A DNA stretch of 64,000 bases from an uncultured Clostridia bacterium (GTDB taxonomy: Bacteria; Bacillota; Clostridia; TANB77; CAG-508), in NCBI GenBank assembly GCA_944387445.1, contig CALXEX010000003.1, positions 24,538-88,537 on the forward strand, given 5' to 3'. The notes beneath the pieces were generated by a model. That model ran no database searches, was not told where the DNA came from, and saw only the letters and a program-made list of their open reading frames with translations. Shown one piece after another: positions 62,450-62,985 of this stretch. Position numbers and translations under genes: made by a program. How positions within the stretch are numbered: the first letter of the stretch is position 1; the number at the start of each line of letters is the position of its first letter.

Positions 62450-62779
62450 ATGAAAAAATTAGCGTTATTGAACACAAGCATACTCACAAACGACGGAGAG
62501 TACTCTCTCCGGACAATAACACTTGAGGAGGCTCAGGCGCTTGTTCAGGCGCAGTCCGACAATTTGGACAGTGCCATCGGGCACGAGAGCACGGCGCAGA
62601 TCATGACGACGCTCTTGGGCGCAGACGTTGCCGTTAACCGGCAGATGTTTGCCCAGGAGGTTGGCCAGACAGCTTTGGTGTTTAAGCTGAATGGCCGTCC
62701 GCCGGAAGGAAAGATCCTGACGGCGGAAGAGATCGAAAAGATCGGGTACAAGTGGCAGGTACTCGAAAGACGTGCATAA
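62450..62779 (+). CDS. small conserved-looking protein (109 aa) encoded in a GC-rich (~58%) islet; family not confidently recognised
   Basis: Abrupt compositional switch after codon ~12; two in-frame CGG Arg codons; GC-rich hairpin terminator downstream. Confidence 0.55.
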   Translation: MKKLALLNTSILTNDGEYSLRTITLEEAQALVQAQSDNLDSAIGHESTAQIMTTLLGADVAVNRQMFAQEVGQTALVFKLNGRPPEGKILTAEEIEKIGYKWQVLERRA

Positions 62780-62985
62780 AAAATTGCCACAGAGGGGTCC
62801 CTCGTTTTCAACGAGGGGCCCTTCTTATGTACAGGAGATAAGTGAATTTATTGGTGAAAGTCTTATACAGTGTTTAAGACTAAATCGAACCGAGAGATTT
62901 TGGACTAAAAAACAAAGTATAATATTGTAAAATTCTAAAAAATGATATATAGTTATAATGAGAAAACATTAAAGGAGAGTGTTTT

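Follow-up and report, generated by a model that had tools for sequence, protein, structure and literature searches.

Proteins of the DUF1874 family are known from several settings. AcrIII-1, represented by SIRV1 gp29, is encoded by viruses or other mobile elements, Crn2 lies in or beside a type III CRISPR-Cas locus, and YddF belongs to the conjugation operon of ICEBs1, an integrative and conjugative element (ICE) of Bacillus subtilis. Both SIRV1 gp29 and YddF rapidly cleave cyclic tetra-adenylate (cA4) to A2>P; in SIRV1 gp29, H47 acts as the general acid, and the H47A substitution lowers activity more than 2500-fold (10.1101/778746). Genes for DUF1874 proteins have also been noted as cassette-like cargo after a conserved structured element (Weinberg et al. 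2017, PMC5737381). Here we describe a member of this family encoded in a 64,000-nucleotide stretch (hereafter the window) of contig CALXEX010000003.1, from an uncultured Clostridia bacterium, where a short GC-rich islet interrupts very AT-rich DNA. We propose with good confidence that horizontal transfer brought in the AcrIII-1/Crn2 (YddF-like) gene whose body forms the islet, and that this gene is carried in a self-contained promoter-gene-terminator unit at a hot spot.

Results

The islet contains a gene of the DUF1874/AcrIII-1/Crn2 family

The open reading frame (ORF) in the islet and its putative active site are located as follows.

62450..62779, plus strand: gene for a 109-residue ring nuclease of the DUF1874/AcrIII-1/Crn2 (YddF) family, from Pfam and PDB matches and from AlphaFold2 (AF2) and Foldseek
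62582-62584, plus strand: CAC codon of the catalytic His45, from alignment to the known active-site histidine

An earlier note, made from the letters of the window alone, had left the protein without a family and proposed a profile search. That search identified it as a member of the PF08960/AcrIII-1/Crn2 family: the Pfam model PF08960 (STIV_B116-like, formerly DUF1874) matched with an E-value of 5.4e-31 and 107.2 bits against a gathering cut-off of 26, and residues 4-101 aligned with model positions 1-100 of 101, which is the whole domain. Sequence matches in the PDB were 2j6b, 8y7f, 8y6z, 2j85, 2x4i and 6scf, and the proteins matched were AFV3-109 (4e-15), a Marinitoga Csx1-Crn2 fusion, STIV B116 and SIRV1 gp29. 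The roughly 1,000 database relatives are called 'YddF family' or 'DUF1874 domain-containing' where they are named, the top named ones being YddF-family proteins of Blautia producta at 73% identity.

The structural comparison agreed. An AF2 monomer model, built on an input alignment of 36 homologues, reached a predicted local distance difference test score (pLDDT) of 89.2 and a predicted template modelling score (pTM) of 0.81. All 17 Foldseek matches in the PDB with E<=1e-3 were AcrIII-1/Crn2 structures (8y7g/8y7f/8y6z, 2j6b, 2j85, 6scf, 2x4i; TM 0.69-0.84), and the first match beyond that set had an E-value of 0.2. H45 lies within the motif SAIGHES and is invariant across the 36 homologues, as are E86 and G87, while R83 and P84 are nearly so; R83, P84, E86 and G87 belong to the R-P-x-E-G loop. 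By alignment numbering H45 equals H495 of Csx1-Crn2, the residue mutated in 8y7g according to the entry title, and in the sequence alignment it equals H47 of SIRV1 gp29 (2x4i, constant offset +2).

The PADLOC profile named Csx16 also matches the protein (1.3e-20). Csx16 is itself a cA4 ring nuclease (10.1101/2024.09.24.614671), so the functional inference does not depend on which label is chosen. The ratio of nonsynonymous to synonymous divergence (dN/dS) is 0.10 against the allele at the syntenic locus L005 and 0.05-0.10 across cassettes. Thus, the gene is kept functional by purifying selection.

Composition and codon usage set the gene apart from its host

A two-change-point fit was used to delimit the islet.

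62491..62821, no strand: GC-rich islet, best-fit limits

GC was 0.565 inside these limits and 0.272 outside (log-likelihood gain 49), the mean of the 64-kb window being 28.4%. Elsewhere in the window, 350-nt stretches never exceeded 0.377 (mean 0.283, sd 0.037), and the islet, about 7 sd above the window mean, is the only such stretch. This confirms the islet described by the earlier note, although its figure of about 58% for 62480-62830 was slightly too high: we measured 0.547 there, with a peak of 0.575 in a 200-nt window.

Codon usage is equally deviant. GC at third codon positions (GC3) is 0.66 in the ORF against 0.163±0.025 in the 48 other genes of the window (about +20 sd), and with GC at second positions (GC2) at 0.37 the excess falls mainly on third positions. 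An index of the codon adaptation index (CAI) type, a check that the earlier note had suggested, came to 0.196 against 0.695±0.049 (-10 sd), which marks the gene as foreign. Rare codons make up 25 of the 109 in the ORF and on average 1.9% in host genes. The double use of CGG for arginine, pointed out previously, was found again, and the 48 other genes have only 5 CGG in 17,832 codons. All the strings quoted earlier were located as well: the ORF motifs STAQIM, LVFKLNGRPPEGKIL and IGYKWQVL, the promoter string TGGTATAAT, the palindromic string CTAGAGAAAATTCTCTAG and the hairpin.

Such a short islet in what is probably a metagenome-assembled genome (MAG) could in principle come from a chimeric contig that joins a low-GC genome to a higher-GC fragment. 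However, both junctions are 100% identical in four contigs (three samples of one European Nucleotide Archive study and one separate sequencing run), and eight further contigs from other studies, including one NCBI MAG, have a 94%-identical allele at the same place. Since the same junctions recur in independent metagenome and MAG contigs, we consider an assembly artefact scarcely conceivable.

A palindrome, CGGAGAG-TACT-CTCTCCG, lies inside the gene at 62494-62511, over the codons for GEYSLR. Homologues retain its equivalent via GAG/TAC or GAA/TAT pairs, which may simply reflect the E-Y-S codons and GC content.

The cassette occupies a variable spacer between two conserved genes

The islet is part of a longer inserted segment between two flanking genes.

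62252..62924, plus strand: whole inserted cassette, 673 bp; variable spacer from the stop codon of the ABC-2 permease gene to the -35 of the S66 peptidase promoter
60755..62251, plus strand: left flank, ABC-2 type permease gene (Pfam labels from the syntenic L005)
62925..64000, plus strand: right flank, promoter (62925-62953) and gene of an S66 (LD-carboxypeptidase-like) peptidase, with its ATG at 62986 and running off the window end (promoter scan; Peptidase_S66 in syntenic loci)

A genome scan with the upstream permease retrieved 29 loci from distinct species of uncultured Clostridia with 25-29% GC, several of them labelled as chicken MAGs. None of these 29 related species genomes had a DUF1874 match in the fetched locus. 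The spacers could be compared in the 24 loci that hold both flanking genes: the replaced segment runs from the last codon and stop of the permease gene to the -35 of the S66 promoter, which is conserved in all relatives, and the spacer versions converge again at TTGTAAAATCC...TATAGTTATAAT. In between, the spacer was nearly empty (about 120-200 bp) or held an ORF of about 55 residues on the minus strand, a long nested inverted repeat or a small membrane ORF. The permease-S66 spacer is therefore a variable hot spot in this clade of uncultured low-GC Clostridia. A DUF1874 gene occupies it only in the lineage of the window and in one other clade (L005-L012), and a tree of the permease 3' region shows these two separated by lineages that do not have the gene. 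Turnover is visible at close range too, since L005 and L023, with permease genes only 0.3% apart, carry different cargo.

Of the other cargos, the commonest, the minus-strand ORF of about 55 residues, has its own promoter and the consensus MYN..SLKRKIAKEG...FLLSD.LP..IKEDLT.EH.F..G.LCLS; it is present in L014, L016, L017, L019, L024, L026, L030 (7495-8074, minus strand), L032 and L041, and truncated in L018. It gave no Pfam or PHROG match. In L013 (7538-7721), and also in L020 and L021, the spacer holds a nested long inverted repeat with 32-nt arms of 94% and inner 31-nt arms of 90% complementarity, which looks like a miniature inverted-repeat transposable element or a long hairpin RNA and has no Rfam match. 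L023 (7492-8256) and L039 (7495-8130) carry small multi-pass membrane ORFs of about 143 and 113 residues, which share the leader TAGAATTGCAAAAATTATGTAAATATGRTAAAATGATATAGATAGTAACCCGTGGTTCAAAGTAGTGC... and match no family. Since the alternative cargos matched nothing in Pfam, PHROG or Rfam, there is no ground for describing the site as an islet of defence or anti-defence genes. The genes around the cassette are of housekeeping type only.

Two further observations concern the window at large. Its sole RNA gene according to both Rfam and ARAGORN is a tRNA-Thr (GGT) at 50743-50818 on the minus strand, not next to the cassette. PADLOC candidate-system profiles matched in 1-62000, namely mad3 (7 ORFs), mad8 (4), PDC-S01, PDC-S22, QatA, PifA and a type II nicking endonuclease; most of these matches probably reflect a generic likeness to ABC ATPases or similar proteins.

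Evidence for horizontal acquisition from a higher-GC source

The earlier note had named the finding that would overturn its idea of a transfer: homologues just as GC-rich in related low-GC genomes. We looked for this pattern in 42 homologous loci, and it was not found. Gene GC follows flank GC (r=0.91) with a mean excess of only +0.027 (sd 0.048), against +0.26 in the window, and homologues in contigs of 27-32% GC have a GC of 33-37%. This bears directly on the idea that DUF1874 genes are intrinsically GC-rich, through selection on the protein or on RNA or DNA structure, and that the gene is not foreign. That idea can draw on the clade L005-L012, with the same GC contrast at the same site, and on the nearest cassettes in AT-rich contigs (L042, L091-L095), which exceed their flanks by 0.10-0.27. 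The trend across the 42 loci, the concentration of the excess at third codon positions and the absence of the gene from the 29 related species genomes nevertheless make it very improbable.

The data support instead a gene horizontally acquired from a higher-GC source, because its composition and codon usage lie outside the host range, its family is not intrinsically GC-rich and relatives do not have it. In this respect the transfer from a high-GC donor that the earlier note had suggested holds up on GC3, CAI, the GC trend of the family and the absence from the 29 relatives. Its further claim that the transfer was recent holds in one sense only: presence and absence are polymorphic at 99.7% permease identity, whereas the alleles of the two clades differ by 10% in nucleotides with a synonymous divergence (dS) of 0.40.

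The cassette carries its own predicted promoter and terminator

The following elements were read around the gene.

62357..62385, plus strand: promoter, with -35 TTGTTT at 62357-62362, a 17-nt spacer at 62363-62379 and -10 TATAAT at 62380-62385 (read from the sequence)
62377-62385, plus strand: extended -10 TGGTATAAT, where TGG is the last three spacer bases and the -10 follows
62400..62417, plus strand: palindrome CTAGAGAA-AA-TTCTCTAG (= CTAGAGAAAATTCTCTAG) in the 5' leader (sequence and fold)
62437..62441, plus strand: Shine-Dalgarno sequence GGAGG, 8 nt 5' of the ATG
62791..62825, plus strand: GC-rich terminator hairpin with a 16-bp stem and a 3-nt loop, then a weak U tract (fold)

From these elements we infer that the predicted promoter would drive the gene. 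It is 100% conserved in L005, and its core TTTTTTATGTAAAAT..GTATAAT is shared with L042; a simple promoter scan passed over it, the -35 being weak. The terminator hairpin folds at -29.5 kcal/mol (z -5.6), and L005 and L042 have homologous hairpins. In our own reading of the alignment, one A-T pair of the L005 stem is a G-C pair in the window. At gathering scores, Rfam recognized nothing in the whole window apart from the tRNA, and at E<=10 the region 62200-63000 gave five weak, chance-level matches, the best with 22.9 bits against a threshold of 114 bits. No Rfam family was found upstream of nine related genes either, nor in the L045 leader.

The palindrome occurs once in the window (0.08 expected), and as RNA it would form a 7-bp hairpin in the 5' untranslated region (-8.8 kcal/mol, z -3.3). 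It may be either such a stem-loop or an operator. It is identical in L001-L012, related cassettes have a different hairpin at the same position, just 5' of the Shine-Dalgarno sequence, and a search of 2.9 million viral contigs returned two chance matches only. The cassette holds no regulator gene. Since each variant places a different hairpin at this position, an RNA-level role in stability or translation appears at least as likely as a specific operator.

Which part of this unit arrived from outside? The earlier note had favoured a graft, in which a native AT-rich promoter and the first 12 or so codons received a GC-rich body from a high-GC donor by gene conversion. Some observations are in keeping with that view: GC climbs only about 40 nt into the ORF, the window and L005 alleles differ in clusters of sites, so that patchy conversion between alleles is plausible, and in codons 8-16 the window allele is the GC-richer one at six of seven differing sites. 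Nonetheless, none of the 24 related loci with both flanking genes has a resident gene at the site. The N-terminus, MKKLALLNTSILT, corresponds to the conserved family start, residue 4 being already position 1 of the Pfam model, and GC3 of codons 1-22 is 0.55 against 0.16 in the host. The low GC of the first 36 nt is due to Lys, Leu, Asn and Ile codons, and homologues from genomes with 40-45% GC show the same step (0.31-0.36 against 0.47-0.49 in the remainder). The promoter, moreover, is absent at empty sites, and its core accompanies the gene at L042. A graft onto a native 5' end thus finds no support and is improbable; a conversion boundary at codon 12 cannot be demonstrated, and what seems to survive of the gene conversion proposed earlier is conversion among cassette alleles, as described below.

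We conclude that the AT-rich promoter belongs to the inserted unit and is not native: empty sites do not have it, and a related gene at another locus comes with the same core. That locus, L042, lies in another AT-rich organism, where an 85%-identical gene with the shared promoter core and terminator sequence sits between pheT and a recD2-type helicase gene. Likewise, L091 (79% identity) is a solitary promoter-hairpin-gene-terminator unit in DNA of 20-28% GC.

A 27-nt imperfect inverted repeat (62349-62375 and 62897-62923, 74% complementary) brackets the transcription unit. As candidate terminal inverted repeats of the cassette it was rejected: the right arm is missing in the L005 allele, and we take the repeat as chance in AT-rich DNA.

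Relatives point to a probable phage or ICE source

The nucleotide search for a high-GC source proposed by the earlier note, run with 62440-62840 against plasmids and phages, yielded no match, and the promoter core was absent from viral contigs. Beyond the two host clades, the top database proteins reach 85% and 79% identity, both in AT-rich contigs. Relatives at 75-77% identity lie at the ends of prophages in genomes of 41-45% GC, after holin, endolysin and small regulator genes and beside the host genes ligD/ku. Homologues were present in 37 phage genomes and in only two plasmids; the plasmid-borne YddF-family genes of Bacillus and Vibrio are 35-38% identical. Given the relatives at prophage ends and in the 37 phage genomes, the unit looks like a phage moron captured by a chromosome, and it probably came from a phage or an ICE. 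The donor of the window allele would have been GC-richer still, with a GC3 of at least 0.66.

The prophage-borne homologues share the leader AAATTACCTKGCYCCCAGGGWWAAGGGGAG directly 5' of the start codon (L043 ~9960-10000, L045 ~1490-1600, L047/L056 ~4890-5000, L057 ~880-987, L096 ~9960-10000), and an upstream hairpin, CCAGGGGTGCAACTCCCCTGG, is common to four of them. These elements may act as a regulatory RNA or bind a protein; they belong to no Rfam family and are absent from the window cassette. In L047 and L056 (viral/metagenome contigs), a DUF3800-I RNA (RF02969, 96 bits) lies at 1280-1386 on the minus strand, about 3.6 kb from the DUF1874 homologue.

Cassette alleles appear to be reshuffled through conserved flanks

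Several comparisons indicate that the cassette moves and that its alleles are reshuffled by homologous recombination via the conserved flanks, a process that our data demonstrate in part. The window and L005 alleles differ at 10% of nucleotides, with a dS of 0.40 against 0.63-0.65 in the flanking genes. The contig L001 and the window are 100% identical between about 62000 and 62977, but identity drops to 87-95% in 60900-61800, which suggests a likely recombination breakpoint near 61800-62000, in the permease gene. The tree favours lateral exchange over vertical inheritance followed by many losses; the latter keeps some probability because the cassette dS of 0.40 is only moderately below the 0.63-0.65 of the flanks.

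Divergence within the cassette is itself mosaic. Between the window and L005, identity reaches 97% over the 172-nt promoter segment, compared with 77% at third codon positions (Fisher 1.5e-7), and the two genes share a run of 29 codons with no third-position change (p=0.003; runs test p=0.0009). By our own reading of the alignment, the last ~63 nt of the L005 gene and its terminator resemble L042, at about 92% identity against 80% overall. Because the divergence between the window and L005 alleles is patchy in this way, gene conversion seems to occur among cassette alleles. At differing sites the window has G or C and L005 has A or T in 20 cases, the reverse in 7 (p=0.02), as would be expected if L005 had undergone more amelioration or received more AT-rich donor patches. 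Polarising the substitutions with L042 as outgroup was tried and set aside: by our own tally 12 sites agreed with the window and 19 with L005, and parallel AT-ward changes together with mosaicism make the direction unreliable.

These patterns allow a bolder proposal, which we regard as possible though doubtful. The spacer would be an integrase-free docking site, where small promoter-gene-terminator units are swapped between species by flank homology, the DUF1874 cassettes of AT-rich gut Clostridia would form one pool that recombines across loci, and a phage anti-CRISPR would have been domesticated as a constitutive orphan cA4 off-switch. What suggests a cross-locus pool is the likeness of the L005 allele, in its 3' end and terminator, to the L042 allele at pheT-recD2. 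If this proposal were correct, the orphan off-switch could adjust signalling in the host or leave the cell permissive to mobile DNA.

Proposed function

By homology, we hypothesize that the protein would dimerise and bind cA4, the second messenger of type III CRISPR systems, and that His45, as general acid, would cut it to linear A2>P. Loss of cA4 would in turn switch off cA4-activated effector proteins. In our model, a phage-moron-like unit would have entered the chromosome and then moved between related lineages by homologous recombination. Its present role may be that of a Crn2-like host off-switch or of a leftover anti-CRISPR, depending on whether the genome makes cA4.

The protein could also belong to the family by sequence and have a role other than cA4 degradation, either binding a host protein or persisting as a neutral hitch-hiker. 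No type III CRISPR genes are present among the listed PADLOC families in the 64 kb, and ICEs and phages often carry the family in hosts that may or may not have type III systems. Binding of another host protein has been reported for SIRV2 gp37, and a native-system study that questions the anti-CRISPR role of a viral member reports inhibition of a host methyltransferase (10.1101/2023.01.10.523387). Against such a role, the catalytic histidine and the R-P-x-E-G loop are conserved, dN/dS is 0.05-0.10 across cassettes, and YddF, a member from a bacterium, actively cleaves cA4 (10.1101/778746); as a neutral hitch-hiker, the intact ORF would not persist through a dS of 0.4-1.6. We therefore consider another role unlikely.

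Several points weigh against the acquired AcrIII-1/Crn2 gene that we propose. The native-system study cited above found no anti-CRISPR effect of a viral DUF1874 protein during infection and reports a second activity for it (10.1101/2023.01.10.523387). The other 47 ORFs of the window matched 34 PADLOC families; the 25 listed include no cas10, csm/cmr or CARF gene, so any source of cA4 in this organism is hypothetical. Within ±10 kb of the cassette in the syntenic L005, no phage, integrase or conjugation family was matched, and the phage origin that we infer draws on the relatives only. Protein scans of viral contigs and of metagenomes had the same outcome, no full-length match above 73% and one partial match (85%, over 47 residues in the viral contigs); neither these scans nor the database and nucleotide searches turned up a donor that exceeds 85% protein identity or has a matching high GC. 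The closest relatives have a GC3 of 0.35-0.56, below the 0.66 of the window copy, which is the highest of its clade, and thus do not account for its extra GC. Finally, the breakpoint in L001 could come from a chimeric metagenome contig.

Comparison with known systems

The locus offers a clean, well-bounded case of single-gene transfer into a very AT-rich genome, in which empty sites, alternative cargos and a probable breakpoint are all visible, and it presents a member of the AcrIII-1/Crn2 family that lies neither in a mobile element nor in a CRISPR locus. Should the host produce cA4, the orphan gene would influence how the type III CRISPR response of that host is turned off; should it produce none, the gene is a trace of earlier phage traffic. 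In neither case would the current understanding of the DUF1874 family change.

With AcrIII-1 (SIRV1 gp29, PF08960), the protein shares domain, fold, size and catalytic histidine, and the same chemistry, cA4 to A2>P, would be expected of it, although the two are only 21-24% identical in the structural alignment. AcrIII-1 in the strict sense is encoded by a virus or mobile element; the window gene is not on a recognizable virus, plasmid or ICE, has no mobile-element genes within about 10 kb (as seen in L005) and is flanked by an ABC transporter and an S66 peptidase gene. YddF of ICEBs1 is likewise a bacterial single-domain DUF1874 protein. However, YddF is part of an ICE conjugation operon, whereas the window gene is solitary, with a predicted promoter and terminator of its own.

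The likeness to Crn2, a group that includes the Marinitoga Csx1-Crn2 fusion, lies in the chromosomal site and in the best structural matches, 8y7g and 8y7f (TM 0.76-0.82, 29-33% identity). Unlike that fusion, the window gene is not fused to an effector, and no type III locus or CARF effector accompanies it in the 64 kb, again among the 25 of 34 PADLOC families listed. It also differs from the DUF1874 RNA motif and attC-like arrays in being a single unit with no array of repeated elements, no integrase and no significant Rfam family.

The likeness to a phage moron lies in other features: an independent predicted promoter and terminator, a deviant GC content and near relatives at prophage ends. 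In contrast to a moron, which lies within a prophage, the window unit lies in an intergenic hot spot of the chromosome. This is, then, a known family in a tidy and unsurprising setting and a fairly ordinary gene transfer, and its only mildly novel parts are the hot spot with interchangeable cargos and the recombining pool of cassettes.

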